This document shows positions 411 through 16,343 of a DNA stretch of 45,869 nt, in pieces. The stretch is from a virus. Every line of letters begins with the position of its first letter. The first letter of the stretch is position 1. The notes beneath the pieces were generated by a model, which saw nothing but the letters and a program-made list of their open reading frames with translations, was not told the origin of the DNA and did not search any database. The stretch lies in IMG/VR virus record IMGVR_UViG_3300045988_123909; one strand, written 5' to 3'. The translations under genes were made by a program, and so were the position numbers.

Positions 411-493
411 ACCTTATATATTATAAAAGGTGCGCCACCTCTTGTGGCGACACACCTTAAAATTAACTAATAAACTAAATAAAATGAGAAACG

Positions 494-1300: not shown

Positions 1301-1322
1301 AATTTTTTCTGAAAATGTAGGC

Positions 1323-1339
1323 GAGGTACGCCGTACCTC
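1323..1339 (-). terminator. Small hairpin after the capsid gene (gaggtac-gcc-gtacctc), possible attenuator or terminator
   Basis: 7-bp stem with 3-nt loop, 36 nt downstream of the capsid stop. Followed on the minus strand by a T-containing tract. Confidence 0.3.
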
Positions 1340-1374
1340 ACCTACGAGTTAACAATATATATATATAATAAGGA

Positions 1375-3402
1375 CTAACGGCCACCAGGAACATTAGGCT
1401 GAACAGCCTTGTTAATGGTTCGCTTGCCACCTACGCGACGTTCGAGCTCACGGAACTTCTCGTCCTTGCCGAGAATAACCATGATGTAGTCGCCAGCCTG
1501 GCTAGGAGTCCATGCTGCGGTAATATTTGCAAACTTGCCACTATTGGCGATGGTAAGCTGGTGCTGGGCATCATCCTCACCAATCTCGATGCAGTAAGCT
1601 ACGCCAGCCTTCGCATTCGTGATATTCTCGATAGTGGTTGCTGTAGTAGCAGCATCTGTAATCTGCCAGAAGCCGTTTGCACCGTTGATCTCTGCACCAA
1701 TAACAGTTGCAGGGAGGTTGGTAAAGATCTGCTGGAACTCGTAATCGTTGGCATCCATGGCAGCCTTGCTGTCAAACTTGCGGCCAGTAAAGGCTGCGCC
1801 ACAACCTTCCTTCCAGGTACTCCAGGCACGAACCATCTCCATCTGTTCCTCCATCTTCACGGCGAACATCTCGCCAGGGAGGTTCTCTACGAACTGAATA
1901 TTGCCAGGGACGTCCATGAACATCCAGCAAGACTTGCCCTCGTATGGGAGCCACTTAATCTGAATGGTAGAGTCTGGGACGCGGTTCTTGTAGCCGTTAG
2001 GACCGGTAAAGTCCTGATCCTTGCCATAAGTCTCGCGGCAGTTAGCAAGCCACCAGTCAATATGGTTTTCATTGAGATAGAGAACATGGTTATCGATGGT
2101 CATGCCCTCAGAGAGGTGAGTCTTAACGTCGGTAATGAACTCCTTAACCGCATCCAGCATATTAGCTGAAGTATAAGTATTGTAGCTCTTATTAGCAAAT
2201 GGCTTAATGCTGTAATCGTGGATGTAACGGAGCAAGGTGTACCAGATACCTGTACCTGCATTGAGGTAGCTTGACGCCTGTCCTACCTCTGGCTTGACGT
2301 AAATACCACGCATACGACGCTGGTTCTGCTCGTCCTGAGCCTTCTTCAAGAGGTTGAGAAGGCAGAATTCAACCATAGACCACTTGATAGGATCGGAGCC
2401 CTCCTTATTGAGATAAGCGATATACTTACGCTCAAGTTCCTTCATTGGGCCAAACTTAACCTTAATCATGGCGTCATCAACATAGCCCATCTCGTTTTCG
2501 AGCTGCATGCCACCCTTGTAGATCTCACCTTCCTGGTAGCCCTGAGATACCTCATCGAAGAATGCGTTGAAGAGAATGTCACGATCCTGAACACCATAGC
2601 GAACAGGGAAAAACTCTGTAAGATTACGAAGTTCAAGGATTCGGGCAATAAGCGCATCCTGGCGAAGGATAACGAACTGGTCACCCAGTCCTGCATTATC
2701 CACGCCTGAGTAATTTGTGGCAAACTGGCCGGAAGCGAGAGCTTTGACGTTACCGAGCTCGTTGCGTACCTGGTGATACTTGTAGCGTTCCTGGAGCGAT
2801 CTCGCGAACGCCATCGCTTCGGTACGGAATGCCTTGCCGTCTGTCTCCTCGTTTGGCGCAGATGCTAAGGCTATCTCAGGATTAGCGACAATGCGGTTCC
2901 AGCGCTTTTTCATATCGAACATAGAATGCTCGATACCGAAAAGGTAGTTAGCGTTAGTTTTGAAACCGTTAATAGGAATAGAAGGAGCAGTAACATGAGC
3001 AGCAGGTTTGTCATCTGCTGTACTATTAGCCATCTTCTTCATATTCTCAGCGAGAATGTTGACAGCCGTAGAGAGTTTCTCGAACGATACATCCTGGCTG
3101 TTCTCGTTCTTCTTTCCTGCATCATCATCGTCGTCGCCACTTCCATCGCCGTCAGGATCATCATCCTTTGACTTGTTAGCCTTTGAGACAATGGCATAGA
3201 GCTCATTGATCTGCTTCTGATGCTCAGCCTGCTCGGCTGCACTATTCTCCTCAGCGAGGTCATCCATGAGAGTACTCTGGTACTCTTTCTGGTACGCCTC
3301 GCAAAGAGCCTTATACTCATCTGCGGTAAGGCTCTTATTCTCAAACTTCTTAGTAAAACCAAGACTCTCGAGAACCTTGTTTAACTTTGCTTTGAAATTC
3401 AT
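1375..3402 (-). CDS. Putative major capsid protein with N-terminal coiled-coil/poly-acidic (scaffold-like) extension
   Basis: 675-aa ORF immediately downstream of the prohead protease. The N-terminal ~130 aa are helical and very acidic (DDDPDGDGSGDDDDD). Call rests on size and position in the head module; no motif-level proof. Confidence 0.6.
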   Translation of the reverse strand: MNFKAKLNKVLESLGFTKKFENKSLTADEYKALCEAYQKEYQSTLMDDLAEENSAAEQAEHQKQINELYAIVSKANKSKDDDPDGDGSGDDDDDAGKKNENSQDVSFEKLSTAVNILAENMKKMANSTADDKPAAHVTAPSIPINGFKTNANYLFGIEHSMFDMKKRWNRIVANPEIALASAPNEETDGKAFRTEAMAFARSLQERYKYHQVRNELGNVKALASGQFATNYSGVDNAGLGDQFVILRQDALIARILELRNLTEFFPVRYGVQDRDILFNAFFDEVSQGYQEGEIYKGGMQLENEMGYVDDAMIKVKFGPMKELERKYIAYLNKEGSDPIKWSMVEFCLLNLLKKAQDEQNQRRMRGIYVKPEVGQASSYLNAGTGIWYTLLRYIHDYSIKPFANKSYNTYTSANMLDAVKEFITDVKTHLSEGMTIDNHVLYLNENHIDWWLANCRETYGKDQDFTGPNGYKNRVPDSTIQIKWLPYEGKSCWMFMDVPGNIQFVENLPGEMFAVKMEEQMEMVRAWSTWKEGCGAAFTGRKFDSKAAMDANDYEFQQIFTNLPATVIGAEINGANGFWQITDAATTATTIENITNAKAGVAYCIEIGEDDAQHQLTIANSGKFANITAAWTPSQAGDYIMVILGKDEKFRELERRVGGKRTINKAVQPNVPGGR

Positions 3403-3453
3403 AAATCAATCATTTAAATATTAAAACAACTTAGATCAAACAAAAATAATATA

Positions 3454-4437
3454 TTAGCTAAATCCGTAAAGGCTCTGCGTCCCCATATAGGCCTCTCCCA
3501 GTTCTGCCACCTCTGCAATCGCCTCCAGTAAGGTGCGCTTACCGTCGATGAGACCGACTTCTTCGGCTGGAGCGGTATACAGGCTCTCTCCCTGAAGTAC
3601 CGGGGCGTCATCATCCAGTTCTGCCAGTTTGGAACGCTGAGATTTCACTTCTGCCAGGAACTGTTCATTCATCGGATCAAGAACATTCTTAATATAGTCT
3701 TCAGACTTACCGTCCTTCAGGTCCTCGAAAATCTTATTCTTCCGGCTAGAATTGGTAGCCTTCGCTACAATCTTCTTCAGCCCTAACTTCTCGAAGTATG
3801 GCTCAAAGTTCCAGAAGGAACACATAGTACCGATGCATCCAACGAAGTCATGATTCGTTGTTGCGTAAAGTTTCTGACCATGACAGCCGATGTAATAGGC
3901 TGCCGATGCGCAGTATTCTTCATAGATGGCAATGATAGGTTTCTTGGCGCTTCGCAGAGTCTCGCTCAATCGATCCATGTACCATGCCTCTCCTCCTGGA
4001 GAATTGATATGAAGGAGATGAGCGGATATCTGCGGGTTGTTCTCAGCGGCAATAATATCCTGTTCCAGCTGTTTGGAAGAGAAATACCAGTAGCTGTTTG
4101 CTGTCACAACTCCGAATACACGATGATATGCGATTGTACCATCATCCAGAGATGGCGAATTGTATTCATCCGTAAGCTGTACACTTTTCGTTTCATCTCT
4201 CTGCGATACCTTGGCAGATATCGCTAACAGCGCTTCATGCGTCTCGTACTGATAATATGTATGAGTCTTGAGATACTCCCGGATCTCAGGAATACTCATC
4301 GCCTGTTCGGCTTTTTTCTGTTCGAAGCTTACCACCGTGCCATTCAACGGAAAAGCAGCTACCATCAGCTGACGGTAGGCATCCTCAGTAATCCATAGAG
4401 GTAGAGTGGAAAGCAGAAGGGTCTGTATTTCGTCCAT
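3454..4437 (-). CDS. Prohead (head maturation) serine protease, ClpP/S49 (SppA-like) family
   Basis: Motifs INSPGGEAWY and ASAAYYIG are typical of S49/ClpP-fold peptidases. It sits directly upstream of the capsid gene. Start moved to the internal ATG at 4437 (MDEIQTLL), because the longer ORF overlaps the upstream gene. Confidence 0.75.
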   Translation of the reverse strand: MDEIQTLLLSTLPLWITEDAYRQLMVAAFPLNGTVVSFEQKKAEQAMSIPEIREYLKTHTYYQYETHEALLAISAKVSQRDETKSVQLTDEYNSPSLDDGTIAYHRVFGVVTANSYWYFSSKQLEQDIIAAENNPQISAHLLHINSPGGEAWYMDRLSETLRSAKKPIIAIYEEYCASAAYYIGCHGQKLYATTNHDFVGCIGTMCSFWNFEPYFEKLGLKKIVAKATNSSRKNKIFEDLKDGKSEDYIKNVLDPMNEQFLAEVKSQRSKLAELDDDAPVLQGESLYTAPAEEVGLIDGKRTLLEAIAEVAELGEAYMGTQSLYGFS

Positions 4438-4490
4438 CTTAATTAAGTTTTCTACAAAGGTACATATATATAATATGTATATAAAAGACC

Positions 4491-4841
4491 TTAAAGCAAT
4501 GGGTTCGCAAGCATTTTGCACTTAACGATAAGCTTCGCCTTATTCAGATGTCTGACGAGCTGAACCTTCGCCGGGATTGTTTCCGTACCTATCTCGTACG
4601 TACGTGCATCAGGAAGTCCAACACTTGCGAGCGTGACGATAGCGCTGCGAGGAACCTTTAGTTTGTTAAAAATGCTCTCGTCCGCTATATCGACAATAAA
4701 TGTCTTACTACAATCCCAGTACACACCTCCATTTTCCTCTGTCATTGAAGGCTCGAATGTGAACGGATCGGCGCTGAGGACTATGTTTCTTTCTGTGCCT
4801 CCGAGAGAGGAAATCATTAAAAGACAGGAAAACTCTTTCAT
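4491..4841 (-). CDS. Hypothetical protein (head module)
   Basis: ORF in the track. The ATG at 4841 (MKEFSCLL...) is preferred over the longer extension. Confidence 0.45.
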   Translation of the reverse strand: MKEFSCLLMISSLGGTERNIVLSADPFTFEPSMTEENGGVYWDCSKTFIVDIADESIFNKLKVPRSAIVTLASVGLPDARTYEIGTETIPAKVQLVRHLNKAKLIVKCKMLANPLL

Positions 4842-4915
4842 AATGTTAAATTTTAGAGCGATTATTACTAATTTTTGAGTGACAGAAATTTGCACTCAGT
4901 ATGTATTAAAAATAA

Positions 4916-5443
4916 TTAAATACCCCGTTTTTTTTGGTATTTTCGAGGTGTTTTCGGAAAAAGCCGCTGGCGGTAGCGATAAAAGTTCTTCAGGAGCGCA
5001 TCGGGCGATATAGACCTCAGAGAGTATCTCCTGATGAAATTGTCTACCACATCCTGGTTCCGTAACGGCCTGCCCAACTCTTCATTCTCAATCATGAGTC
5101 GGTGAAACTCGAAATTGAAGAGAAGTCGAATATGCTCTTCGATTTTTTTCGCCGCATTACTGGATAGATAATTGAAGTAAGCCGGATCCTTACCAGGATG
5201 TCCATCCATCTTTGAGCGCCGTGAAGGCAGATATATCTTGAGATTACAGTCTTGCATGACGTCATGATGAGAGTCTGGCTTGGCCATACAATTCCACACC
5301 ACATGATACAGATCTGTGGTGTATGGTATTTTTACTCCGCCTGTTTCTGGCTCAATTTCTAGCTTTTTTTGAATATACTCTGCCAAATAGGGCTCAATTC
5401 TAACAGACGCTGTTCGTTTCGAGAGACGTTTTTTTCTTTCCAT
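4916..5443 (-). CDS. Hypothetical basic protein, first gene of the late/head operon
   Basis: 175-aa ORF with ATG start and a K/R-rich C-terminus. It follows a TAtcTTTG promoter box and the iteron region. Confidence 0.5.
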   Translation of the reverse strand: MERKKRLSKRTASVRIEPYLAEYIQKKLEIEPETGGVKIPYTTDLYHVVWNCMAKPDSHHDVMQDCNLKIYLPSRRSKMDGHPGKDPAYFNYLSSNAAKKIEEHIRLLFNFEFHRLMIENEELGRPLRNQDVVDNFIRRYSLRSISPDALLKNFYRYRQRLFPKTPRKYQKKRGI

Positions 5444-5465
5444 ATCGTTTTTGCTTATTTTAGCT

Positions 5466-5812
5466 TCCTACCGTCCTACAATCCTACAAATTGCAGGCTT
5501 ACGAATGCAAAGATACTAAATTTCAGCGAGTTACACAAATTTAATCAAACATATTTTAGTCCTACACACTCATTTTTTCGCTTCCTACACGTCCTACAAT
5601 CCTACAAAATGGGATATTTTGTAGGATGAGATCTCCGAAAGCACCAAAATGCGAAAATTTCCTATTTCCTACAACGTCCTACAATCCTACAGCATTTCCT
5701 ACAAAAACACAAAAACACAAAAATACACATAACATACTGATAATAAGATAAATAGATAATAATAATAGTTTGAAAAGAAATGCATTTGTAGGATTGTAGG
5801 ATTGTAGGAAGG
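5466..5812. repeat. Iteron array: about 12 direct and 4 inverted copies of TCCTACA(A), often as TCCTACAATCCTACA, flanking an AT-rich tract; putative origin or regulator-binding region
   Basis: Direct copies at about 5467, 5474, 5482, 5560, 5583, 5592, 5600, 5667, 5677, 5685 and 5697. Inverted copies at 5616-5626 and 5787-5812. AT-rich aaaaacac repeats lie at 5700-5785. Confidence 0.7.
5508..5515 (-). promoter_or_regulatory. Bacteroidota-type -7 promoter box (TATCTTTG on minus strand) for the head operon
   Basis: Plus-strand caaagata is the reverse complement of TATCTTTG, about 65 nt upstream of the ATG at 5443. Confidence 0.5.
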
Positions 5813-5919
5813 CATTTTTCTGAAAATCATTTTCAAAACTTCGTTTTCTCGGTTATTTTTGAAATTTTAGGGGGTACGGGGGATTTTTCGCATCTGAAAC
5901 ACACATAAATGTAAAGAAA

Positions 5920-5953
5920 TACCCACGCTCGCCCTCCCGGGCTTACGTGGGTA
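5920..5953 (-). terminator. Putative intrinsic terminator of the replication operon
   Basis: Stem tacccacg / cgtgggta (8 bp) with a GC-rich inner stem. Followed on the minus strand by ATTTCTTT. Lies about 125 nt downstream of the primase-helicase stop. Confidence 0.45.
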
Positions 5954-5992
5954 AAAATATGCAAAATTCAACTCAAATTTATGTGGAAAATC

Positions 5993-6024
5993 TTTGGTTT
6001 TCTCGAATATTTTTTGTATCTTTG
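5993..6024 (+). promoter_or_regulatory. Canonical Bacteroidota promoter on the plus strand (TTTG - 20 nt - TATCTTTG), pointing antisense into the primase-helicase 3' end
   Basis: tttg at 5993-5996 and tatctttg at 6017-6024, with a 20-nt spacer. No convincing plus-strand ORF lies downstream. Confidence 0.4.
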
Positions 6025-6078
6025 TATCGTTAAATTGGAGTAATCTACATCTTATATAAGATAGTTTTTCAACTCTTA

Positions 6079-9000
6079 TCAGAACGGTTTATCCCCATTC
6101 TTGCCGGCGTCTGTTTCATCAAATGGTATACTGCCAGGCTTGTACTGCTGGGTATTAATATCAGTATTAGCCTCTTCATTCACTCCTGAAGTGCTCAGAG
6201 CGACGCTCTCGGCGGGGATTTCTCCTCGTCTGAAGTCGATATTATACATCTCCATGAACTTATCGTAGTCGATGATAATTGCACTTGTAGATGTAGAGCG
6301 CTCCTTACGCACTCTTACCATCGTTTCCTGGTCATCCGGCTTAGCAACCTCGACGGTCTCCTCCCATGCGAAGCGCCGAGATGGTACGGTTCCAATATAT
6401 GATGGATGTGAGCGAAGATTCTGCTCAAGGGTAGATAATGTCGTATTCTCGCTATTGTAGCCACTCCTGTCGTATATGGAATATACGCTGCTTAGGCGCA
6501 GGAAGAGGATATGTGTGCCCGGGTCGAAACCGAATGTCTTCTTGTCTCCGTGAGAATCCTTGCCTGTAACGCTCTTAGGCTGCTCGATGAGCATCTCTCG
6601 GCCAACGAGTACCTGTTTTGTGTCGATCATGTTGTTGACTGCATTGAAGAACATAGCGAGCTTGTCTGTGCTTCGGATCAGAGAAAGCTGGAACTTAATC
6701 TTCTCCTGCACAAGGGCGAAAAACTCATCATACGTAAACGGCAGTTTAAGCTTAGAATATTGCTCTACAAGTTTCACCATTCCGAGGAAGAGGGAAGCCG
6801 TCTTCATGAGTCGGTCCATCTCTCCGGAATTGATTACATCACTCTTGAGCTCGCTGTATGCCTCCTGCTTGAGCGCACGAAAATGGTCCATGACTGCAGG
6901 TCTGAGCGACAGCACTTCTAGTAATACGTTGGATAGCCCTATATTCTTCTCTATATTCTTGAGCTCCTCAAACAGCTTAGTCTCCTCCGGTGTCCTGTTC
7001 TTAGGCTTAGGGACCTCGCAAATGATGACGCGGCTCATCAGGGCATTGTCATCTCGCTGAGGGGTCTCCTGACCGCAAATAACCACCGGCGCAAATACCT
7101 TATCATTCTCGATATCCCTTCCCGAGGTTCCACGGCGTTTCTGCTTTCCGTCTCCATCGTACACAATACCCTTCAGCGCCTGAAACTTGGTATCTGAGAT
7201 ATCCTTGTTGTTGTACTCGTCTAGTACGACTGGCACGTCGCGAAATGTACCCATAATGGTACTCATGGCCGCATCAGTACCTGTATTGAGGTTGAATATC
7301 GGAATGGTAGGACTTATGAACAGAGATCGAATTGAAATTGCAATCTGAGTCTTACCTGAAGACATCGGGCCCATAAAGAACGGAGCCGTAAAGAGTCGGT
7401 CTAGGCAGTGAATATTACTTCTGAAGGCGCACATCAGCGCGAAAACTATCGCCCATTTACCATTATCATTGATTTTGTACACCTTATTCATTAACGATGC
7501 CCATTGTTCGAACGTGACCTGCTTGTTAACAGGTATATCTTCATACACGAGCTGCGATATCAATTCATACTTGTCAGATTGCCTTCCAGATCCGGCATAT
7601 ATAGTAGAGAAGGCAGGGAGATAGTAGTTCATATGATTATGGGTCACTACGCCTAGCTCATTAACCTTCTCGAACACATATTTTCCACTTTCGTCTTCAT
7701 GCGCTATACCGTTGGCGAAGGCGAAGAACTGCTCATCGGTCTTTCGACTCATTCCTTCAGACTGCTGATTGCCGTATGTTTGAATCTCTCGGCACTGAAC
7801 GAAATGGCGGCTCATATACTCCTTGATACGCCTCCACTGCCACTCTTTGCCGTCCATGAAATTCACACCTTCATAGTTGATAAGAACATCCTCGATAGTA
7901 CTCATCTTTTTAAGAGAGCTCGATAGGACTTCAATATACAACGGCTTATCGAAATATCGGCGGTTAACCTTTAATACTCGCTTATTCTGCTCGAAATCCT
8001 CGTTGAAGATATGGAGCAGAGGAACCATATAAAAGTCTGCGACCTGCGAGAAGCCACGTCCATTCTTGTTCTGGAACATGTAACAGACCGGTATTCCCTG
8101 CTTATTCAGACGGGGATAATACTTGCACTCGCGAAACATCTGGGCGTACTCGCCTTCCCTTGCATAGCTAGGAACCTCATCACCATCGAAGTCATCATCA
8201 TACAGATCGTCTTTCAGCGCATTTGCCTTCATGACGTTCTTGCGCTTACTGACGAATGGTTTACGGATCTCGTCAAACTGACCCTTAGATAATCCCAACT
8301 TACTGCAGTAATGATTCTTGTTTACGGTGATGACTGTCTCTTCTGCGTAGCTTGTCAGTTCTATACACCTGGTAATGATTGGAACCTTGTCGCCCAGGAA
8401 ACCAGACAGCAAATCTCCATGTATACGTATATAGAAGTCGATGAAGGATTCTACCTTATCTTTATGCATAACTCTGATTTGCGAGATTCCTGCCTTGAAC
8501 ATTTCGGCCAGAGCGGAGAGATAGCTGCTATCATCGCCTGTCGTCGTATCTATGCTGCAGCCTTCTTCAGTTGTGGCTAGATAGCAGCAGATTCGGCGTA
8601 GGTTTTGAATATCGGTGGCAGACGGAGTACCAGCTATGTATACGATCGGATTATCACCATATGACTCCATGAAGGTATCGATAGATGATGTTACGATAGC
8701 AGGCTCATTATTCCTCAGATTATCCTTCAGATCGTCAAGTCCAAAAATACCCTGTTGCATATCTTCTTTCTTAATACTATCAACATTGCGTCGGATATCC
8801 CGAACTTTATCTTCCAAGATTGTCATCTTTGTATCGAAGTCCTTAGTCATGCTCTTCATATACTCAAGACGCAGTCCGACGTCCTGCACGCATGCTACTA
8901 GGTTGGCGATAGTATTCATGGCTGAAGCGATTGTAGCCTCGTCCTTGCATCCGCGAGGAACCAGCATTCTTTTCATCGCCTTCGGAAATGTTTCAGTTGC

Positions 9001-10068
9001 ATCGATTAACTTCTGTTTTACGCCATCCTTACAGAGCTGACCGTAGCTGTCTGGATCATATCCCTTCGGCAAGCGAACGCACCTGACGCTCGCTCCTGCC
9101 GTCAATAACAGTTCACTATTCTTGACGGCAGCCTTAATCCCTGCGCTGTCCGCATCGTAGATCATTACAACAGACTGAGTGAAGCGCATAATGAGTTTTA
9201 CCTGGTCATCGGTAAATGCTGTTCCCGATCCACCGATAACGTTCTCGACCCCATATTTATGTAGAGTGACAACATCGAACTGCCCCTCTACGAGATAAGC
9301 AAAACCCTCTTTCGCTATCGCCCTTTTTGCTTGGAATAGTCCGAAAATATGCCGACCTTTTCTGAAAATGGGCGTCTCTCCGGTATTAACATATTTGCCA
9401 ACTTTATCGTTCGGAGTAACAATTCTTCCGGAAAACGCAACGACTCTTCCAGACACGTCGTAAAACGGGAACATTACGCGGTCTCTGAAGAAGTCATAGT
9501 TTCTCCCGTCTTGAGACTTGCCTACGACTCCAACATCTTCCAATATCTGCAGACTGTACCCATTCTCCACGAGATACTTCATCGCTACATTACCATTCGG
9601 AGCATAGCCCACTCCATATTCTGCAAGCACCTTATCTGTATAATCGTAACCGCGTTTTTTAAGGAAGCTCTCCGCTTGCGAGATATTGCCCTGGTAGAAC
9701 TTTGCGGCAGCAGCAATGGCTATACGACGAGACTCAAGCAATTTATACGCAGCGTTTTCTTCCGGAGTAGATTCTTGTTCCGGAAACTCAACATCAGCGA
9801 GCTTGCAAGCTATTCGCAATGCCTCGTTAAAAGTTATCTGGTTGTATTTCTGCAGAAAGTCCAGAACGTCTCCATGCTCACCACACACGAAACAATGGTA
9901 CGTCTGTCTAGCCTTATTAACCATCATAGAAGGATGACTATCATTATGGAACGGACAGATACCCTTGTAGTTAATGCCCGCCTTCTGAAGATTAATATAG
10001 GCGCCTATCACATCAACAATATCAAGTTTACTCTTGACATCGCTAATGAAGTCTGAGTTGATTTTCAT
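6079..10068 (-). CDS. DNA primase (DnaG-type CHC2 zinc finger + TOPRIM) fused to a P-loop NTPase/helicase domain
   Basis: N-terminal CPFHNDSHPSMMVNKARQTYHCFVCGEHGD is a CHC2 zinc finger. TOPRIM motifs are LVEGQFDVVTL and MIYDADSAG. C-terminal Walker A is GPMSSGKTQ and Walker B is VVLDEYNN. Confidence 0.85.
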   Translation of the reverse strand: MKINSDFISDVKSKLDIVDVIGAYINLQKAGINYKGICPFHNDSHPSMMVNKARQTYHCFVCGEHGDVLDFLQKYNQITFNEALRIACKLADVEFPEQESTPEENAAYKLLESRRIAIAAAAKFYQGNISQAESFLKKRGYDYTDKVLAEYGVGYAPNGNVAMKYLVENGYSLQILEDVGVVGKSQDGRNYDFFRDRVMFPFYDVSGRVVAFSGRIVTPNDKVGKYVNTGETPIFRKGRHIFGLFQAKRAIAKEGFAYLVEGQFDVVTLHKYGVENVIGGSGTAFTDDQVKLIMRFTQSVVMIYDADSAGIKAAVKNSELLLTAGASVRCVRLPKGYDPDSYGQLCKDGVKQKLIDATETFPKAMKRMLVPRGCKDEATIASAMNTIANLVACVQDVGLRLEYMKSMTKDFDTKMTILEDKVRDIRRNVDSIKKEDMQQGIFGLDDLKDNLRNNEPAIVTSSIDTFMESYGDNPIVYIAGTPSATDIQNLRRICCYLATTEEGCSIDTTTGDDSSYLSALAEMFKAGISQIRVMHKDKVESFIDFYIRIHGDLLSGFLGDKVPIITRCIELTSYAEETVITVNKNHYCSKLGLSKGQFDEIRKPFVSKRKNVMKANALKDDLYDDDFDGDEVPSYAREGEYAQMFRECKYYPRLNKQGIPVCYMFQNKNGRGFSQVADFYMVPLLHIFNEDFEQNKRVLKVNRRYFDKPLYIEVLSSSLKKMSTIEDVLINYEGVNFMDGKEWQWRRIKEYMSRHFVQCREIQTYGNQQSEGMSRKTDEQFFAFANGIAHEDESGKYVFEKVNELGVVTHNHMNYYLPAFSTIYAGSGRQSDKYELISQLVYEDIPVNKQVTFEQWASLMNKVYKINDNGKWAIVFALMCAFRSNIHCLDRLFTAPFFMGPMSSGKTQIAISIRSLFISPTIPIFNLNTGTDAAMSTIMGTFRDVPVVLDEYNNKDISDTKFQALKGIVYDGDGKQKRRGTSGRDIENDKVFAPVVICGQETPQRDDNALMSRVIICEVPKPKNRTPEETKLFEELKNIEKNIGLSNVLLEVLSLRPAVMDHFRALKQEAYSELKSDVINSGEMDRLMKTASLFLGMVKLVEQYSKLKLPFTYDEFFALVQEKIKFQLSLIRSTDKLAMFFNAVNNMIDTKQVLVGREMLIEQPKSVTGKDSHGDKKTFGFDPGTHILFLRLSSVYSIYDRSGYNSENTTLSTLEQNLRSHPSYIGTVPSRRFAWEETVEVAKPDDQETMVRVRKERSTSTSAIIIDYDKFMEMYNIDFRRGEIPAESVALSTSGVNEEANTDINTQQYKPGSIPFDETDAGKNGDKPF

Positions 10069-10082
10069 ATTTCTTATTTTGT

Positions 10083-10469
10083 TTAGTCGAACAGATTGAG
10101 CTGTAGAGAATCGAATGCTTCAGATATCGTAATATTGAAGTATGCTGCCACAGCTTTATACTCTTCTGGTTTTATAGCCTTACGGCCGAAGAAAATATCC
10201 CAGTATCTTACTTGGTTAATACCAGTCTCCTTAAAAAAGAACTTGCTTGGATGGAAGTCCTCAAGATGACGGAAGCGACACTCAAGCAACTTCTTCAGGC
10301 GATTCTCCTTAACAACCTGATGTTTGTCGTCCAACCTATGGCGAAGCGCATATAATCGAACGGCCATTACGGAACGATTGAGTTGTCGTGCCATATCCTC
10401 AAGACTCATTCTTCCGTAATTCCCAACCAGGTATGCAATTTCGTTTTTGTTCCATTTTCTATTACTCAT
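10083..10469 (-). CDS. Hypothetical DNA-binding-like protein
   Basis: The track ORF starts with GTG at 10475; the ATG at 10469 (MSNRKWNK...) is more likely. The N-terminal W..EI..L...Y....IA..L.RS..AV pattern resembles a Myb/SANT-like or HTH region. Confidence 0.5.
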   Translation of the reverse strand: MSNRKWNKNEIAYLVGNYGRMSLEDMARQLNRSVMAVRLYALRHRLDDKHQVVKENRLKKLLECRFRHLEDFHPSKFFFKETGINQVRYWDIFFGRKAIKPEEYKAVAAYFNITISEAFDSLQLNLFD

Positions 10470-10578
10470 AATCACATATTGGTCTATTATTATACTCGAC
10501 GTATCTCTTTAATTTGAGACAGAACCAGCCATTAATGCAAGCTCTGCCTTCTTTGCAAATTGCGCATTTCTCATACAT
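10462..10578 (-). CDS. Small Cys-rich protein (38 aa), below the ORF-track length cutoff
   Basis: Hand translation: MYEKCAICKEGRACINGWFCLKLKRYVEYNNRPICDYE. The ATG lies 3 nt after the upstream stop. Its stop overlaps the next start as ATGAGTAA, so it appears translationally coupled on both sides. Confidence 0.45.
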   Translation of the reverse strand: MYEKCAICKEGRACINGWFCLKLKRYVEYNNRPICDYE

Positions 10579-10581
10579 AAG

Positions 10582-11136
10582 CTATTTTGTTTTTATATGC
10601 TCCAGGTAATATGCTGCCACCTGCGCTAGTGATCTTAGCTGGAGCTTAGCCTTAATATTCTCCCTATGCCGTTGTACGGTTTTTACAGATATATAAAGAC
10701 GGTCTGCGATCTCCTGGGCGCGCAAGCCTTTAGATATAAGTTCTACTATATCTAACTCACGATCAGTAAGCTTAGAGTCTAGTTTAGGCTTACAGATGAC
10801 ACCCTCCATCCTGCATTCGCCACGCAACGGGCACTTGACCTCCTCAAAATGAAAGAAACCGTCTGCGTCGATATCAGGAGTATGTGCATCATATTCGCCG
10901 AAATTACATCTGCAGAACCTAGATACAATGTTGAATTCGTATACCTTGCGATTTAGTTCGCTCGCCGTATACAGATCACACAGAGCCCTAAAGGTTTGAG
11001 GATATCTGGTTTTAATTAGGTCTAGCATCTCCTCGATAACTTCGCGGCTGTCGGCTGTAAGTTCCTGGACAGGTTTGCCCAGTTGCTTATACATAACATC
11101 ACCTTCTGGTGTATTGTAAAACTCGACTGACTCCAT
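10582..11136 (-). CDS. LuxR/FixJ-type HTH (sigma-70 region-4-like) transcription regulator with Cys-rich middle region
   Basis: C-terminal LTDRELDIVELISKGLRAQEIADRLYISVKTVQRHRENIKAKL is a textbook LuxR-type HTH. Upstream Cys cluster: CRCNFGEY...CPLRGECRMEGVIC. Confidence 0.8.
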   Translation of the reverse strand: MESVEFYNTPEGDVMYKQLGKPVQELTADSREVIEEMLDLIKTRYPQTFRALCDLYTASELNRKVYEFNIVSRFCRCNFGEYDAHTPDIDADGFFHFEEVKCPLRGECRMEGVICKPKLDSKLTDRELDIVELISKGLRAQEIADRLYISVKTVQRHRENIKAKLQLRSLAQVAAYYLEHIKTK

Positions 11137-11138
11137 AC

Positions 11139-11336
11139 TTACTCCTCCGGAAAAAGTTCGCTCTCCTGCATACCTAGATACTCAGCGACAATTCCTCTGC
11201 ATAGAGCGTTCGGCTTGGACTTGCCTTGAATCCATCTGTAGACGGAATTATTAGATACCTTGCATTTCTCCGCAAGTGCTTCTACAACCTTACAACGAGG
11301 GTATGGAAGACTCTTCATGTACTCACTAAAACCCAT
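11139..11336 (-). CDS. Cro/Excisionase-like small HTH protein
   Basis: 65 aa, containing KVSNNSVYRWIQGKSKP (HTH-like). Divergent from the CI-like gene. Confidence 0.55.
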   Translation of the reverse strand: MGFSEYMKSLPYPRCKVVEALAEKCKVSNNSVYRWIQGKSKPNALCRGIVAEYLGMQESELFPEE

Positions 11337-11418
11337 ATTTTTTAAAATTTTTGTTTGAAATCATCATTATGTGCGACATTTTTTGTATATTAGCACCGTG
11401 AAAATTATTAACACGCTG

Positions 11419-11470
11419 CAAATATACAACATTTCAGTGATACCACCAAACATTTCACTGATTATTTTTG
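11419..11470. promoter_or_regulatory. Divergent promoter/operator region of the lysis-lysogeny switch
   Basis: Minus-strand promoter is TTTG (11450-11447) - 20 nt - TATATTTG (11426-11419). Plus-strand -7 box is TATTTTTG (11463-11470). Two 13-nt repeats 21 nt apart: acatttcagtgat (11428-11440) and acatttcactgat (11449-11461). Confidence 0.55.
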
Positions 11471-11504
11471 TATTTTTCAGCATTTTGTTTGAAAATAAGA
11501 TATT

Positions 11505-11840
11505 ATGAGTACAGAAACAACAGCAGAAACTATCAATGAGCGCGTAAATAGCATCATTGAAAAAGAGGGTCACACCATCGCTACATTTGCTAAGAAAATC
11601 GGTGTGCCATGGACAACGATCAAAAACATCGTATCTGGGCGAAATGCTCCTAGTTACGATATTATCGTGAAGATCATTAACGCGGTAGATTGGGTTGATG
11701 CCAACTACCTGGTAATGGGTGAAGAACTCACGAAAGGTAATCAGGGAAACCTGTTGACAATCGTTGAGAGACAGAACAAGACTATCGAGAGCCAGCAGAA
11801 GACTATTGATAGGCTTACCAAAAAGATGTTAGAAAACTAA
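11505..11840 (+). CDS. XRE/CI-like HTH repressor
   Basis: N-terminal INERVNSIIEKEGHTIATFAKKIGVPWTTIKNIVSGRNAPSYD is an XRE-family HTH. Lies on the plus strand next to the integrase. Confidence 0.75.
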   Translation: MSTETTAETINERVNSIIEKEGHTIATFAKKIGVPWTTIKNIVSGRNAPSYDIIVKIINAVDWVDANYLVMGEELTKGNQGNLLTIVERQNKTIESQQKTIDRLTKKMLEN

Positions 11841-12293
11841 GATTTAATTGCACCGTTTTTGCGTAAAATGAGTTATTTTGCCAAACATTTGTTCTACAAC
11901 AATCACACAACTGTTTGAGCATCTGTAACTTGTTTGATACGCAACTCGGTGCATTTTCGGTGTTGTATATGTAAAAACCAGAAAAGCCCTAGTTGATTAT
12001 CAGGCAGTTATAACGTATCATGCCGGCATATAAAATCTGTTATTTTTTTCTAAAAATAGCGTAACTATTTGATATTTAAGAAATAAGAACAAAATAAAAC
12101 TAACTTACTCGGCGAAAAATCGGTGAAGATATAAAGAACTGCGCATGTAGGCGACATTATTGTTTTGTTTGATTATAGTAATGCAATAACATAAAAAAGA
12201 CGGATCCATGAAATATATCTTTGGACGGTGCGTTATATATATAATAAGGTATAATAATATTAACTAGGGCGTTTCACTAAGAAAATTAGAGAA

Positions 12294-13475
12294 ATGACCA
12301 AAAAAAATTATGTTTGCAAAAACAAAGAGAACATCCAAGAGATTATAGGATGGACTACCCCAAAGTTGCATCAGGCCTCTGAATGCTATGTCGCCTTCAA
12401 AGCTTTCGATCCTTCTTATGGAAAATTGCGACTAAAGAAAATTATGCTCGGACATATCACGGGCAAACGAAATCAGAGGGTATACGGTGAAGCTCTCATT
12501 AAGCGCATTACCCAGAAGCTTCTTGAAGGATGGAATCCATGGATAGAGGAATCCAACCGAGAAGAGTATTCCTTATTCGCTGATGTTTGTGGCAAATACA
12601 GAGTGTATCTAGCGAAAATGGTAAAAGAAGGTGGACTGAAGCCTGGCACTCGGCGCAACTATGAGGGTAAATTAGACTTCCTGCAAAAGTGGTTAAACGG
12701 CGATGAACATATTACTTATATATATCAGTTCAATAAAACTCTAATCAGTAAGTTCCTAGATTATGTACTGGTCGGACGAAATAATGCTCTAAGAACAAGA
12801 AATAATTATATCGGCTGGCTAAAGTCCTTCTCCAGCTATCTTGTCGAACGAGGATATATCCAGAAAAATCCAACTGACGGCATTAATGTAACGACGAAAC
12901 TACAGCATAAAAATCGAGACGTTATACCTAACGATGTCCTGCGACAGCTTAAATCCTACCTTGAGAAAGAAAACAAACACTTCCTGCTTGCATGCTATTT
13001 TCTCCACTATCTGTTCGTTCGCCCTGGAGAAATGTGCAGTCTGCGAATCAAGGATGTATCAATAAAGAAAAAGACGCTCTCTCTAAGCGGGGCTAACACT
13101 AAAAATGGTCGAGACGCCGTGGTTACTATCCCGAACCACGTTATCGAGCTGATGAAAGAGTTAGGCATATTCTCAAGACCTCAGAATTATTATATTTTCG
13201 GTAATAATTTTCGCCCAGGATTAGAAGCACTGAAGGCTAGGACCTTCTCGCTATATTGGGACAAAAACGTCAGAAAAGCACTAAATCTGAATGCTTCGTA
13301 TAAGTTTTATAGTCTCAAAGATACTGGCATAACTAATATGATAAAATCTAAAACAGACCTGCTGTCTGTTAGAGATCAGGCAAGGCATTCATCTGTCGAT
13401 ATTACCAATATATATACGCCACAGGACTGCAAAGAAGCAAACAGCGCACTTATCGACTATGAAGGTGTATTTTGA
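12294..13475 (+). CDS. int: Tyrosine recombinase / phage integrase
   Basis: 393 aa. N-terminal SAM-like region. Catalytic-region motifs FVRPGEM (Arg), ARHSSVDIT (His/Arg) and NIYT (Tyr). Confidence 0.85.
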   Translation: MTKKNYVCKNKENIQEIIGWTTPKLHQASECYVAFKAFDPSYGKLRLKKIMLGHITGKRNQRVYGEALIKRITQKLLEGWNPWIEESNREEYSLFADVCGKYRVYLAKMVKEGGLKPGTRRNYEGKLDFLQKWLNGDEHITYIYQFNKTLISKFLDYVLVGRNNALRTRNNYIGWLKSFSSYLVERGYIQKNPTDGINVTTKLQHKNRDVIPNDVLRQLKSYLEKENKHFLLACYFLHYLFVRPGEMCSLRIKDVSIKKKTLSLSGANTKNGRDAVVTIPNHVIELMKELGIFSRPQNYYIFGNNFRPGLEALKARTFSLYWDKNVRKALNLNASYKFYSLKDTGITNMIKSKTDLLSVRDQARHSSVDITNIYTPQDCKEANSALIDYEGVF

Positions 13476-13481
13476 TAAAAT

Positions 13482-13510
13482 GATTGTAGGAGATTTGCTC
13501 TCCTACAATC
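13482..13510. terminator. Perfect 11-bp hairpin between the convergent int and RT genes, built from the TCCTACAAT iteron motif
   Basis: gattgtaggag (13482-13492), 7-nt loop, ctcctacaatc (13500-13510). Further copies tcctact and ttcctacaaa follow up to 13526. Confidence 0.55.
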
Positions 13511-13518
13511 CTACTTTC

Positions 13519-14838
13519 CTACAAATCACGCGGATAGCACTCTACATGTATGCGCCCGTCGATGATGTACATCTCAAGTTCATAACCTTCGTCGAGCATT
13601 TTTGAAATTTCATTTTCCGTTGGAATATCTTTTCTCTCTTCTGTTTTATGATTCAATATTTCGTTTGCCATATTCTTATATTTCATATCAATATTATATC
13701 TTTTCTTGAGCTGTACAGACCTATAATGACCTTTAATTACAAAGAATTTCCATGCTTCCTCGTCTAGCTCATCCTTTATGATTTGTCTCTTCATTCCGTA
13801 TTCGTTGTAATGGCCGAAGATTCCCAGGTATGAATTAACCGACTGAATGGCATGGTTGATGGCTTCAATATCTCCATTTCTGGCAGCATCATTAAGCTTA
13901 CGTACAGACTTCCTGAAGTTGTTAATGGTATTGTTAACCGAGTATATTCTGTCTCGCTTAATGATAGCTCCAACAAACCTGACACCTTTAGAGTAATGCT
14001 GGAAATAAAATTTCTTCTCATTCAGCCGCAGGCCTAAAGATGCAAGCGTCTCCCTTATCATCGGCATCAGGCGAAAGAGCGTCTCTTTCCGTCTCGCCAC
14101 CAGAACCATATCATCTACGTATCTGACATGATGCTTGCAGTAATAATCTATCTTCCAATCGAGTTTCGATAACAGGAAGTTAGCAAAGAGCTGAGCAAAG
14201 AGGTTGCCGATAGCTACGCCTCTGTCTTCTCCATTCGTGAACAGAGACTTCTCTTTAGGCAGAAACTCCCAGAGATAATCGGCGCTTCTCTTCTCGCAAT
14301 CCTTCTCGGGATGGTGCATAACCACCGTATTGCATAGCCAACGGAGATCTTCCCTGTCATCCCCATGGTAATTCCTTACGATGAAATCATCTACCATCTT
14401 AGCAAGAAGCGGCTTATAGATGCTCATAAAGAATCCCTTCAGATCGATCCCCATCACGTAGGCATCTTCTGTATAATTCTCGCTCACTTCCATAATATCC
14501 TCCTGAAGCTGCCTGATACCAGCCAGCTGGCCCTTGCCTTTCCGGCAGTTGTATGTACGGTCAGAAAACTGAGACTCAAACAGGGGTTCGAGTCTCAGTG
14601 CGATATAGTGGTGGATAATGCGGTCACGAAACTGACCAGCGAACACTTCGCGGTAGCGAGGGTATCTAACAACAAAGCAGATAGATTTGCCAATCTTATA
14701 TTGACGTGAATTGATTTCATCGAGCAACTGAACGAGGTTACTCATATAGTTCATTTCAAATTCCGTAGCGCCGACTGTTTTCCGCTTATGACGGCGGCAG
14801 TCGAAATATGCTTCTAAGAGAATGCTAAAATCTATCAT
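13519..14838 (-). CDS. DGR reverse transcriptase
   Basis: RT motifs GIDLKGFFMSI, IGNLFAQLFANF and YVDDMVLV (YxDD). Immediately downstream of the TR and avd. Confidence 0.9.
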   Translation of the reverse strand: MIDFSILLEAYFDCRRHKRKTVGATEFEMNYMSNLVQLLDEINSRQYKIGKSICFVVRYPRYREVFAGQFRDRIIHHYIALRLEPLFESQFSDRTYNCRKGKGQLAGIRQLQEDIMEVSENYTEDAYVMGIDLKGFFMSIYKPLLAKMVDDFIVRNYHGDDREDLRWLCNTVVMHHPEKDCEKRSADYLWEFLPKEKSLFTNGEDRGVAIGNLFAQLFANFLLSKLDWKIDYYCKHHVRYVDDMVLVARRKETLFRLMPMIRETLASLGLRLNEKKFYFQHYSKGVRFVGAIIKRDRIYSVNNTINNFRKSVRKLNDAARNGDIEAINHAIQSVNSYLGIFGHYNEYGMKRQIIKDELDEEAWKFFVIKGHYRSVQLKKRYNIDMKYKNMANEILNHKTEERKDIPTENEISKMLDEGYELEMYIIDGRIHVECYPRDL

Positions 14839-14871
14839 TTTAATATCTGTCTGCTTGTATCTTCTTAATTT

Positions 14872-14984
14872 AATGCTGACACCGGGCGAACATGATTCTT
14901 ATCCTTAACCTTATTGTTCCAGTTGTTGAGGTTGCCGTCGCCAAAGTTCAGATTCCACGCGTTCGCAGGACTGTTCTCGGTTGA
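14872..14984 (-). repeat. DGR template repeat (TR)
   Basis: Gap-free alignment to 15586..15698. The 17 mismatches all fall at TR adenines on the coding strand. The TR reads AAC/AAT-rich in the VR frame. Confidence 0.9.
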
Positions 14985-15104
14985 CGCCGCAAATTTCTTG
15001 TTCTTAACTATATATGATAGGATGCGGCCCATTTAATTAAGAAAGGTTGCTCTCTCGGCTTGACGTATCTCGCCGACCCTGGCTTAAATCACTCAAGCTG
15101 TAGT

Positions 15105-15500
15105 CTACTGTCTGGAACTCATCTCAGCAGCCTGCGCTCTAAGGAGTGATCCTTTCCATGCTGTGCATTGTTTTCCGACGTCCTCTCTCAAACGAAGGAG
15201 GTTCGCGAGTCTGTTTGTACCCATTATCCACCTTTGTTCTCCAGCAACATCTATCAAGGTCGATATGACTTCGAGATTGGTTTGAAGTTGAGCGAGATGT
15301 TCGATACGAACACTCAGATCGCTGAGCATATACGCTTTGGCGATATGATTCAGACTATCAATAAGCATATTACATAGTCTGTCTCCAAAAATCGGACGTT
15401 GTGACTTTGGAAAATTCTTAACCACACCTATAGTTATATCAAGCATCTGCTTTACATCTAGATATATTCTCGTTTTACTTGCCAACCTTGTCGCTGCCAT
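15105..15500 (-). CDS. avd: Avd-like accessory variability determinant (four-helix-bundle / 23S rRNA IVS protein family)
   Basis: 131 aa, all-helical and basic. The pattern NFPKSQRPIFGDRLCNMLIDSLNHIAKAY is typical of this family. Located between the target gene and the TR. Confidence 0.8.
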   Translation of the reverse strand: MAATRLASKTRIYLDVKQMLDITIGVVKNFPKSQRPIFGDRLCNMLIDSLNHIAKAYMLSDLSVRIEHLAQLQTNLEVISTLIDVAGEQRWIMGTNRLANLLRLREDVGKQCTAWKGSLLRAQAAEMSSRQ

Positions 15501-15530
15501 ATTTCCTTGTTTTAAATACTCTACTGGAGA

Positions 15531-15554
15531 TGTCCTCGACTTTAAGGTCGAGGA
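15531..15554 (-). promoter_or_regulatory. Hairpin downstream of the VR (gtcctcgac - 6 nt - gtcgaggac): DGR target-recognition stem-loop and/or terminator
   Basis: 9-bp perfect stem, about 30 nt 3' of the VR end and the stop codon on the coding strand. Confidence 0.5.
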
Positions 15555-15575
15555 CGATTAACTATTAACTACTAA

Positions 15576-16343
15576 CTATCGTAAAAATGCTGACACCGGG
15601 CGAACACGACCCTTATCCTTAACCTTATTGGACCAGTTGCTGAGGGTGCCGCCGCCAAAGCGCAGAAACCACGCGAGCGCAGGACTGCCCTCGGTAGATG
15701 ACCAGTACCAGATTGCATCTAGCTGCTGAGCTCCATTAATGAGTGACAGCGCATAGTTGATCTTTGCTTTATTAGCATACATCATCAGTAATTCCCCAAT
15801 CGATGGCAGCCACCAGTATCCGGCGGTCAGACCTTTACCATTACTGTTCGCTCGACTATACAGTCTACAATAGCCTGGAGCGTAGGCAGCAGTATTCGTT
15901 ACGTGCGAATCGGACGATGCTCTGATTGCGGCATCCGTATGCTGCCGGCCATTAAAATCCAGCATGGCAGCGAGTCGGTTATTCCCGGTAACCTGAGCAG
16001 TAAAAGTGTCGTCGCTGCCGTAGTTAGGAAGGTCTGCCTGTACCTCTGCGCTCGACCATGGTAGCGCATCTGCCTGTGTTGGAGCGACAACCAGATGACG
16101 GCCACCTTCAAATATTACTACGCCATCCGCTATTTCTCCGCCAGCTTCCAAGCTTGGCCACTGTGCTGGAGCAACCATGAGCGGATATCCATCATATGCA
16201 CGATGATACATGATGAAGACGCCATCATACAACTGAGCCATATTCTTTTCGAGATAAGGCTTCATAGTGTTAAGACTTGCATTAGTAACGGCCTGGCCGT
16301 TAGCAGACAGCCAATCGCTGATTTTTCTTGTATTTATAGCCAT
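15576..16343 (-). CDS. DGR target protein, DUF1566/C-type-lectin-fold-like, with the VR at its C-terminus; probable receptor-binding tail protein
   Basis: 255 aa. GYWWLPSIGELLMMY and WYWSSTE...W...F motifs resemble DUF1566 or FGE/CLec-fold DGR targets. It is the last gene of the tail-fibre block. Confidence 0.8.
   Translation of the reverse strand: MAINTRKISDWLSANGQAVTNASLNTMKPYLEKNMAQLYDGVFIMYHRAYDGYPLMVAPAQWPSLEAGGEIADGVVIFEGGRHLVVAPTQADALPWSSAEVQADLPNYGSDDTFTAQVTGNNRLAAMLDFNGRQHTDAAIRASSDSHVTNTAAYAPGYCRLYSRANSNGKGLTAGYWWLPSIGELLMMYANKAKINYALSLINGAQQLDAIWYWSSTEGSPALAWFLRFGGGTLSNWSNKVKDKGRVRPVSAFLR
15586..15698 (-). repeat. DGR variable repeat (VR), the last 37 codons of the target gene
   Basis: See TR. 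VR encodes TEGSPALAWFLRFGGGTLSNWSNKVKDKGRVRPVSAFLR. Confidence 0.9.

Follow-up and report, generated by a model that had tools for sequence, protein, structure and literature searches.

The window analysed here is the whole 45,869 nt stretch of the IMG/VR virus record IMGVR_UViG_3300045988_123909. On its minus strand a target gene, avd, a template repeat (TR) and a reverse transcriptase (RT) gene follow one another in this order (Table 1). This confirms a first-pass annotation, made from the letters of the sequence, which had compared the arrangement with mtd-avd-TR-brt of the Bordetella phage BPP-1. The variable repeat (VR) lies at the target gene's 3' end. We hold with high confidence that this cassette is a complete diversity-generating retroelement (DGR) of the avd-TR-RT type, which is carried by a temperate phage of gut Prevotella and diversifies a protein of the tail module.

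Table 1. Genes and sequence or RNA features of the DGR cassette (positions refer to the window; nt, nucleotides; aa, amino acids; IMH, initiation of mutagenic homing).
Feature	Position	Strand	Description
RT	13519..14838	minus	439 aa, YVDD; Pfam RVT_1 E 3e-18, PHROG 1423 E 3e-75
Hairpin candidate inside the RT coding sequence	14771-14804		conserved; wobble-compatible changes, none compensatory
TR-RT intergenic gap	14839..14871	minus	33 nt; conservation within the cassette is lowest in its 3' two-thirds
D strand	14861..14875	minus	CAUUAAAUUAAGAAG; partner of U; its start falls within the final 4 nt of TR/VR homology
TR	14872..14984	minus	113 nt, 35 adenines, 10 AAY codons
S helix, 3' strand	14986..14991	minus	UGCGGC, stops 1 nt short of the TR 5' boundary
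S-helix loop	14992..15022	minus	hairpin 15008-15020 (CUAU-CAUAU-AUAG), then A-rich single strand 14992-15007 (UUAAGAACAAGAAAUU)
S helix, 5' strand	15023..15028	minus	GCCGCA, pairs with 14986-14991
U strand	15030..15044	minus	UUUCUUAAUUAAAUG; pairs with D at the TR 3' end; followed by the invariant G at 15029
Upstream hairpin	15058..15098	minus	41 nt; 13 bp interrupted by internal loops; 13 nt away from the U strand on the 5' side
avd	15105..15500	minus	131 aa; Pfam bAvd E 6e-16, 59.3 bits (cut-off 40)
Hairpin/cruciform candidate	15532..15555	minus	30 nt downstream of VR: GTCCTCGAC-CTTAAA-GTCGAGGAC
Target gene	15576..16343	minus	255 aa; last gene of the tail module
IMH-like 3' end of VR	15586..15606	minus	21 nt identical to TR (TGTTCGCCCGGTGTCAGCATT); homology stops here
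VR	15586..15698	minus	codons 216-252 of the 255-aa target

Computational re-alignment of TR and VR reproduced exactly the ungapped match with an offset of 714 nt that had been annotated (the pair is also repeat family D1), and the re-tabulated mismatches were the same 17 positions. All 17 are T on the plus strand of the TR, which is A on the coding strand, and the VR carries G at eight, T at five and C at four of them. Given 35 adenines in 113 nt, the chance that 17 of 17 mismatches land on A is 7e-11. The VR is in frame from codon 216 of the target, and the in-frame comparison yielded the annotated ten amino-acid changes and one silent change; eight of the ten changed codons are AAC or AAT in the TR. 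The two identical 21-nt coding 3' ends (14872-14892 and 15586-15606) are indeed GC-rich, with 57% G+C compared with 46% in the whole window, and the IMH-like columns show zero variation among relatives in the cassette alignment. Scanning both strands of the window with a score that counted only non-A positions revealed no third VR-like copy, in agreement with the annotation, which had seen no second VR. An ordinary partial gene duplication without any retroelement would explain the repeat itself and nothing beyond it. We regard this explanation as negligible in view of the base specificity (P ~7e-11), the independent recurrence of the same pattern in dozens of relatives, the combination of one invariant with one hypervariable copy, and the adjoining RT and Avd.

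The annotation of a YVDD reverse transcriptase and an Avd-like helical protein next to the repeats held up in the database searches. The RVT_1 match of the RT passes the Pfam threshold, and the best match in the PDB is bRT of the Bordetella phage (8ub7, E 6e-22), followed at some distance by group II intron RTs (7e-9) and retron-type RTs (3e-7). With the NCBIfam models for group II, retron and DRT enzymes the RT stays far under the cut-offs; this collection has no model for DGR RTs. In the cryo-electron microscopy (cryo-EM) structures of bRT the residues K29, F66, R74, I181, G182 and Q187 contact the template and the incoming deoxynucleoside triphosphate (bioRxiv 10.1101/2023.10.23.563531). 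They align with K18, F55, R63, I210, G211 and Q216 of the window RT, and counterparts of D138 and of the catalytic residues D215/D216 are present as well. Judged by both the closest solved relative and the residue comparison, the enzyme, with an intact YxDD motif, belongs to the DGR clade. It exceeds bRT in length by 111 aa, carries an insertion following motif A and is extended at the C-terminus; S186 is replaced by A. The bAvd match of the accessory protein also passes the Pfam threshold; the protein belongs to PHROG 3206 ('Avd protein of DGR') and matches NCBIfam DivGenRetAVD with E 9e-9, which is under the cut-off of that model.

The target protein begins with helices, followed by a small beta domain, and has at its C-terminus a lectin-like domain of the DUF1566/Lcl_C type. 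Its Pfam Lcl_C match has an E value of 9e-7 and lies under the gathering score, a profile comparison with this domain gave E 0.05, and its homologs carry a precomputed PF07603 match. Sequence searches with the target and with Avd against the PDB gave no significant match. An AlphaFold model of the target calculated from a diverse alignment (all-library search) reached a pLDDT (predicted local distance difference test) of 88. Among solved structures, Foldseek matched this model to the fimbrial protein 4EPS of Bacteroides ovatus (E 1.5e-5) and to the C-terminal domain of Legionella Lcl (8Q4E, E 2.3e-4, TM (template modelling) score 0.62 on the target); canonical C-type lectins appeared in the same search only with non-significant E values above 1. 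Among the viral models of BFVD the matches were crAss-like DUF1566 proteins and the C-terminus of long tail-fibre proteins (~E 2e-12). The VR is thus placed at the C-terminus, on a scaffold that resembles the C-type lectin fold. Both kinds of scaffold are known from DGRs: DUF1566-type VRs are a recognised target class ('category d'; Wu et al. 2018), and 4EPS-like variable proteins are a recognised class of targets in Bacteroides (bioRxiv 10.1101/2024.11.15.621889). Membership in the tentaclins, which have an N-terminal VR-bearing C-type lectin domain and immunoglobulin (Ig) domains, was considered and rejected: the VR of the target is C-terminal, and the model contains no chain of Ig domains.

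Because the target gene is the most distal one of the tail module and its product lacks a signal peptide, a receptor-binding role is the most likely one, and variation of the C-terminus most likely changes receptor specificity. The protein could instead adhere to other surfaces, among them mucus, immune components or other cells, or act in lysogenic conversion as a relative of the Type V pilus tips, and the best solved structural match, a Bacteroides fimbrial protein, fits such a role. The homolog in phage Bacuni_F1 is annotated as 'putative fimbrial tip protein', and the literature on DGR targets of gut phages leaves the choice between receptor binding and other roles open. We nevertheless consider a function other than binding to a host receptor unlikely. 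The target gene follows directly after tail and tail-fibre-like genes in the same orientation, the adjoining genes match tail PHROGs, the N-terminus contains neither a signal peptide nor a lipobox, and in BFVD the same fold makes up the C-terminus of long tail-fibre proteins from phages.

The hairpin downstream of the target stop codon has a perfect 9-bp stem and a 6-nt loop and is not followed by a T-run. It is kept in all relatives; the most divergent locus, L030, shows a compensatory GGC/GCC change in the stem and locus L018 a wobble pair. DGR target-recognition hairpins with a GRNA tetraloop have been described (Guo et al. 2011), and the window hairpin agrees with them in stem length and distance. 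The target site thus contains both an IMH-like segment and a downstream hairpin. Between them, at 15558-15578, a conserved string TAGTTAGTAGTTAATAGTTAA spans the target stop codon and extends up to the hairpin. It contains stops in all three frames and is kept even in a clade with 75% RT identity.

Following the mechanism of the family, a transcript covering the 3' end of avd, the TR and the 5' end of the RT gene would be bound by RT and Avd. The RT would copy the TR into cDNA with random bases opposite template adenines, both the GC-rich 3' segment that is identical in the two repeats and the downstream hairpin may guide the step after cDNA synthesis, and the ten AAY codons would be recoded to vary surface residues of the lectin-like C-terminal domain.

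The annotation had proposed a population comparison that asks if polymorphism is confined to sites matching TR adenines, and the public contigs pass it. IMG/VR was scanned with the VR as a pattern with N at every TR-adenine position, a search that is biased by its own pattern. It yielded seven related contigs that are 92-98% identical to the window. The TR was identical at 113 of 113 positions in all of them, and the VRs were all different from each other. Three VRs fell outside the N-pattern by a single non-A substitution or a one-codon deletion each. In an alignment of the cassettes of eight related sequences, the TR and the 120-nt gap between avd and TR contained zero variable columns, while about 3% of the columns were variable in RT and avd and 24% in the VR. 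Within the VR, 25 of the 35 columns that correspond to a TR adenine were variable, compared with 3 of the 78 other columns. The VR is therefore heterogeneous at TR-adenine sites next to an invariant TR when genomes are compared with each other.

To avoid the bias of the VR pattern, a second set of loci was gathered through the RT protein alone, which gave 37 usable loci in IMG/VR. A TR/VR pair with at least 75% of the mismatches at A was found in 35 of them, and nearly all of these pairs reached 90-100%, so the restriction of TR/VR differences to template adenines that is seen in the window recurs in its relatives. In the closest non-identical genome pairs 0.45-0.5% of the flank sites differed, compared with 17% of the VR sites. 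At protein level (47 homologs with at least 86% identity) the ten Asn-templated codons encoded 8-13 residue types with an entropy of 2.2-3.35 bits, while the mean entropy outside the VR was 0.24 bits. One cluster of targets at 90% identity comprised 4093 distinct sequences. In the window VR, 17 of 35 adenines are changed and the adenines near the ends are unmutated. This resembles the DGRs of Bacteroides, in which experiments found about 50% of the available adenines mutated per VR and end-proximal adenines unmutated (bioRxiv 10.1101/2024.11.15.621889). Judged from these sequence comparisons, mutagenic retrohoming has evidently occurred repeatedly in this lineage in nature.

If the cassette of the window were a recently inactivated relic, the VR differences would have been written in the past. 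Dead copies do occur, as in locus L053, where the RT is split and the VR is identical to that of locus L052, and in locus L016 recombination has left a mismatched TR/VR pair. We consider this explanation very unlikely for the window. Its RT is full length and has all catalytic residues, and its avd, TR, IMH-like end and hairpin are intact too. Comparison of relatives visibly shows strong purifying selection on the TR and the 120-nt leader, and genomes with no more than 0.5% difference in the flanks have different VRs. A few observations weigh against an active and complete DGR of the kind proposed here. The RT has A215 (IGNLFAQ) where bRT has S186, and DGR RTs usually have S before Q. The Lcl_C assignment of the target stays under the Pfam gathering score, an earlier AlphaFold model calculated from close homologs was unusable (pLDDT 45), and the loop of the hairpin downstream of the VR has 6 nt and is not of the GRNA type of Guo et al. 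2011. Finally, current activity of the window copy is read from a comparison between strains.

The two exceptional loci deserve a short description. In L053 (Logan assembly, 7506-8826) the RT is split into two open reading frames (ORFs) of 141 and 311 aa, and the flanks differ from those of the intact copy L052 at 1 in 3076 nt; this is either a fresh inactivation or an assembly error. In L016 (2635-2742 and 3356-3463) the TR and the VR differ by a non-adenine block, CAGAAT versus GGAGTC, and by one G/A and one T/G difference, on top of the adenine changes. It appears that the TR type that templated the L016 VR is that of a sister lineage, which suggests a recombination that swapped TR or VR.

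The annotation had also drawn attention to the spacer of about 33 nt between TR and RT, much shorter than in BPP-1. The short spacer was confirmed; it characterises the whole clade and does not mark a defect: the gap measures 33-44 nt in all close and intermediate relatives, and in a distant clade and in the Bacuni phages of Bacteroides uniformis the TR lies directly against the RT start. The 33-nt gap is for the most part variable, whereas the 120-nt gap between avd and TR is nearly invariant even at 75% RT identity. The constraint is also visible in the adjoining coding regions. Synonymous diversity of avd drops from 0.3-0.4 to 0.15 over the last 20 codons, and synonymous variation of the RT gene is held down over the first 40-50 codons (0.10-0.14 in codons 1-40, 0.2-0.45 further on). 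We infer that spacer-like RNA elements sit upstream of the TR, in the gap between avd and TR, and that the gap between TR and RT is short for this reason. A search of Rfam gave no match in the window, and no tRNAs were found.

Two helices frame the TR. The first, U:D, corresponds to inverted repeat I7; in eight haplotypes of the close clades it showed 90% pairing and three compensatory pairs, while controls with slid strands reached 33-59%. U:D and the second helix, S, were then tested together for covariation in ungapped segments from 14 lineages, with RT identities down to 36-41% and including bins of rumen Bacteroidaceae and Prevotella. Three sequence anchors alone set the cuts: the unique motif A[UC]GGGC, the GC closest to the TR on its upstream side, and, at the TR end, NNG with C[AG] after it. 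In this set 82% of the cells were paired and 14 of 19 pairs had changed on both sides (41 cells). None of 500 shuffles attained these values, and slid controls were 24-47% paired. For the S helix, 91% of the cells were paired and five of seven pairs showed compensatory changes across lineages. U and S are joined by a single invariant G in every lineage, and the cultured phages F1 and F2 have the same core of U:D and S, yet with other sequences. On the basis of this covariation, U:D and S are well supported as real helices.

The upstream hairpin (15058-15098) was proposed by RNAalifold. In it 98.5% of the cells were paired, with six wobble-compatible one-sided changes and no compensatory one, and the outer stem is broken in L030; the element is a candidate for a protein-binding stem-loop like the one bound by Avd. 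The hairpin in the S loop has a compensatory CCAU/AUGG change in L030, and the motif GUUAMGAA of the A-rich strand recurs in clades whose RTs are only about 40% identical. Scanning the 26-sequence alignment for helices, all against all, revealed no further convincingly covarying one. By inspection we saw no template:primer hairpin of the BPP-1 kind in the stretch from the last mutated adenine to D, and for the TR 3' end we saw no complementary sequence in the leader or in the 5' coding region of the RT.

For comparison, the 140-nt spacer between TR and brt in BPP-1 contains an Avd-binding stem-loop, a primer strand ending at A56, then G57 and a stop-duplex strand, whose partner is avd sequence immediately upstream of the TR (bioRxiv 10.1101/2023.10.23.563531). 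A short stem-loop with adenosines, a single-stranded thumb ring and a bRT-binding stem-loop come next in this spacer (same source). Going round the BPP-1 loop, the TR 3' end lies in the template:primer helix, followed by the priming nucleotide, a 2-nt linker containing G, the stop helix and, a few nt on, the TR 5' end. In the window the proposed order is the upstream hairpin, 13 nt, U, the invariant G, S with its hairpin and A-rich strand, the TR and D. U:D (15030-15044 with 14861-14875) would close the TR loop at its 3' end, with U as the equivalent of the BPP-1 primer strand, and S (15023-15028 with 14986-14991), which abuts the TR 5' end, is proposed as the equivalent of the stop duplex. 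A comparable cycle would then run from the TR 3' end into D, over its partner U, which ends at G15030, through the linker G15029 to the paired S strands and, after 1 nt, back to the TR. The base G14876 lies directly 5' of D and would be the first one templated if priming occurs in cis from upstream, and cDNA synthesis would stop at helix S. Cis-priming in the BPP-1 architecture uses the 2'-OH of the primer strand's final nucleotide, for which G15030 is the predicted counterpart here.

The closure of the TR loop resembles that of BPP-1: two neighbouring helices share one bridging strand with a G linker, here U:D, G15029 and S, the last of which abuts the TR 5' end. The hairpin and the A-rich strand that follow the S 5' strand parallel the short stem-loop, the A-minor adenosines and the thumb ring of BPP-1. 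The difference lies in the side: the BPP-1 spacer is 140 nt downstream of the TR, whereas the window has 33 poorly conserved nt there and the covarying elements in the 120 nt upstream, so the candidate Avd-binding stem-loop and primer strand are not located downstream of the TR. Which helix is loop-closed and which is open to the transcript is exchanged between the two systems, which amounts to a circular permutation. We therefore propose, tentatively and with somewhat less than even confidence, that the leader and the TR form a circularly permuted BPP-1 core, in which cis-priming takes place at G15030 opposite template G14876 and synthesis stops at the edge of S. With the same reserve, the permuted core may extend over a broad clade of DGRs from phages of Bacteroidota, with RT identities down to about 36%; this clade includes the B. 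uniformis phages F1 and F2 and prophages of rumen Bacteroidaceae and Prevotella. No description of a DGR with such an upstream spacer was found in the literature searched. The survey that accompanied the cryo-EM work sought stem-loops downstream of the TR and pairing between upstream and downstream sequences (bioRxiv 10.1101/2023.10.23.563531), and would have scored U:D as a 'stop duplex'.

Several points speak against the permuted core. The priming role of U is deduced from topology alone, the anchors of the covariation test were chosen by the analyst, and two of those for the S 3' strand had to be corrected by homology. A single-sequence fold of 14700-15110 was no more stable than shuffled sequences (z = 0.04), and RNAalifold with 26 sequences missed U:D, where the alignment had a one-column gap.

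U:D and S could also be real helices that regulate RT translation or the processing or stability of the transcript, instead of forming a scaffold for priming and termination. For translation control speaks that D covers the RT start codon in several distant lineages (in the window it lies 23 nt upstream of the ATG) and that the RT start codon takes part in a conserved complementarity, CUAUCAU/AUGAUAG. However, in every lineage U:D and S border the TR on either side, within 1-5 nt of its ends, one invariant G joins the helices as G57 follows the primer nucleotide in BPP-1, and a G always precedes D like G117 of the BPP-1 TR, although the anchor pattern required this G. A purely regulatory role is unlikely in our view, though a serious contender, and translation control and a priming scaffold are not mutually exclusive.

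Some further features of the leader were noted. The leader strand of the complementarity is CUAUCAU at 15011-15017 and the strand at the RT start codon is AUGAUAG at 14832-14838; together with U:D this pairing would make a pseudoknot. RNAalifold also proposed pairing of GAGAG (~15052-15056) with CUCUU in codons 7-8 of the RT. Both complementarities are invariant in the 26 sequences, so no covariation signal is possible. In loci L039-L045 (~3195-3500), which belong to a clade with about 40% RT identity, the RT frame is open upstream through the entire TR, and the likely RT start codon lies a few nt from the TR end, inside the D strand. A 55-aa ORF at 14865-15032 (minus strand) opens at an AUG inside the U strand and runs through the TR. 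Its counterpart in Bacuni_F1 is annotated as 'putative DUF1566 domain protein', with conserved ATG and frame; this putative ORF is probably a by-product of the coding origin of the TR.

The nearest named phages by RT are F2, F4 and Bacuni_F1 of B. uniformis (MT806186, MT806185 and MT635598; PMC8143477). The annotation had suggested a comparison with Hankyphage, which was not borne out: no Hankyphage record was among the RT matches. The RTs of F2 and Bacuni_F1 are 54% and 50.5% identical to that of the window (50-54% over 87% of the length). These phages have the same order of target (~253 aa, DUF1566), bAvd, TR and RT; they also share a TR that reaches up to the RT start, a recombinase nearby, the A[UC]G-G-GC motif and the helices U:D and S. 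They differ in the host, which is Bacteroides and not Prevotella as indicated here by metagenome-assembled genomes and prophage association, and in the TR-RT junction, where they have an overlap instead of the 33-nt gap. There is no similarity of the cassettes at nucleotide level, and the TR and U:D sequences differ.

BPP-1 (PDB 8UB7 series; bioRxiv 10.1101/2023.10.23.563531) is alike in gene order, adenine-specific transfer, Avd and the conserved RT residues, and also in the C-terminal VR on a lectin-like fold, a GC-rich 3' segment that is identical in TR and VR, and a hairpin located downstream of the latter; its target is Mtd, whereas the window encodes a 255-aa DUF1566-type protein. The variable proteins of 'domain group 1' in Bacteroides (4EPS/4QB7-like; bioRxiv 10.1101/2024.11.15.621889) likewise have a C-terminal VR on a variant of the C-type lectin fold and are mostly encoded by prophages, as in the window. 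These elements were catalogued in Bacteroides, and some of them diversify pilus tip adhesins and carry Msl, whereas the window element belongs to a Prevotella phage tail module and has only Avd. The C-terminal DUF1566 domain (PF07603; 8Q4E) of Lcl from Legionella pneumophila is similar to the target in sequence (below the gathering score) and in fold, but no DGR diversifies Lcl, which is a collagen-like adhesin.

Tens of thousands of DGRs have been catalogued in gut phages, and more than 85% of the RT-bearing gut phage genomes have a TR-VR pair. As a DGR the element of the window adds little: it is of a known type, and its layout is shared with cultured phages of B. uniformis. Its dozens of public relatives, with an invariant TR and hypervariable VRs, make it an unusually clear natural example that is suitable for studying the diversification of receptor binding in phages of Prevotella, a host group for which cultured phage models are scarce. 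If the upstream-spacer reading is true, the priming scaffold of DGRs tolerates circular permutation. This would help to define the minimal RNA for compact engineered DGR mutagenesis tools, and DGR detectors and RNA-motif surveys, which at present look for spacers downstream of the TR, would change.

The assignment to a temperate phage of gut Prevotella is based on the integrase, the prophage copy beside aspS and the matches to Prevotella bins; we take the window to be a complete genome of such a phage. Its first 77 nt (1-77) are identical to the last 77 nt (45793-45869), which indicates a circular assembly of 45,792 bp, and the overlap looks like a k-mer artefact of the assembler and not like a biological terminal repeat. 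A tyrosine integrase gene adjoins the RT gene, and tape-measure and tail genes are located upstream of the cassette. A near-identical cassette is present in a bacterial contig of 783 kb (locus L052). In this locus (10312-12768) the similarity to the window (12032-12294) ends about 260 nt beyond the integrase start, and two small ORFs and aspS come next. The phage attachment site attP is probably located between a helix-turn-helix gene (11505-11840) and the integrase gene. RT relatives with 85% identity were found in two uncultured Prevotella genome bins.

When GenBank phages were searched for near-identity to the cassette, the only hit was an overlap on the integrase side with an unannotated fecal contig, and no match covered the DGR. 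The fecal phage contig MT835875 is 92% identical over positions 37-13629 of the window, and the similarity ends inside the 3' end of the RT gene (13519-13629). MT835875 therefore has another cassette or none at this position, which looks like a mosaic boundary. Apart from the cassette, a gene at 6079-10068 (minus strand) encodes a protein of 1329 aa, whose N-terminal region is that of a primase (PHROG 6444, E 2e-108) and whose C-terminal part is long.

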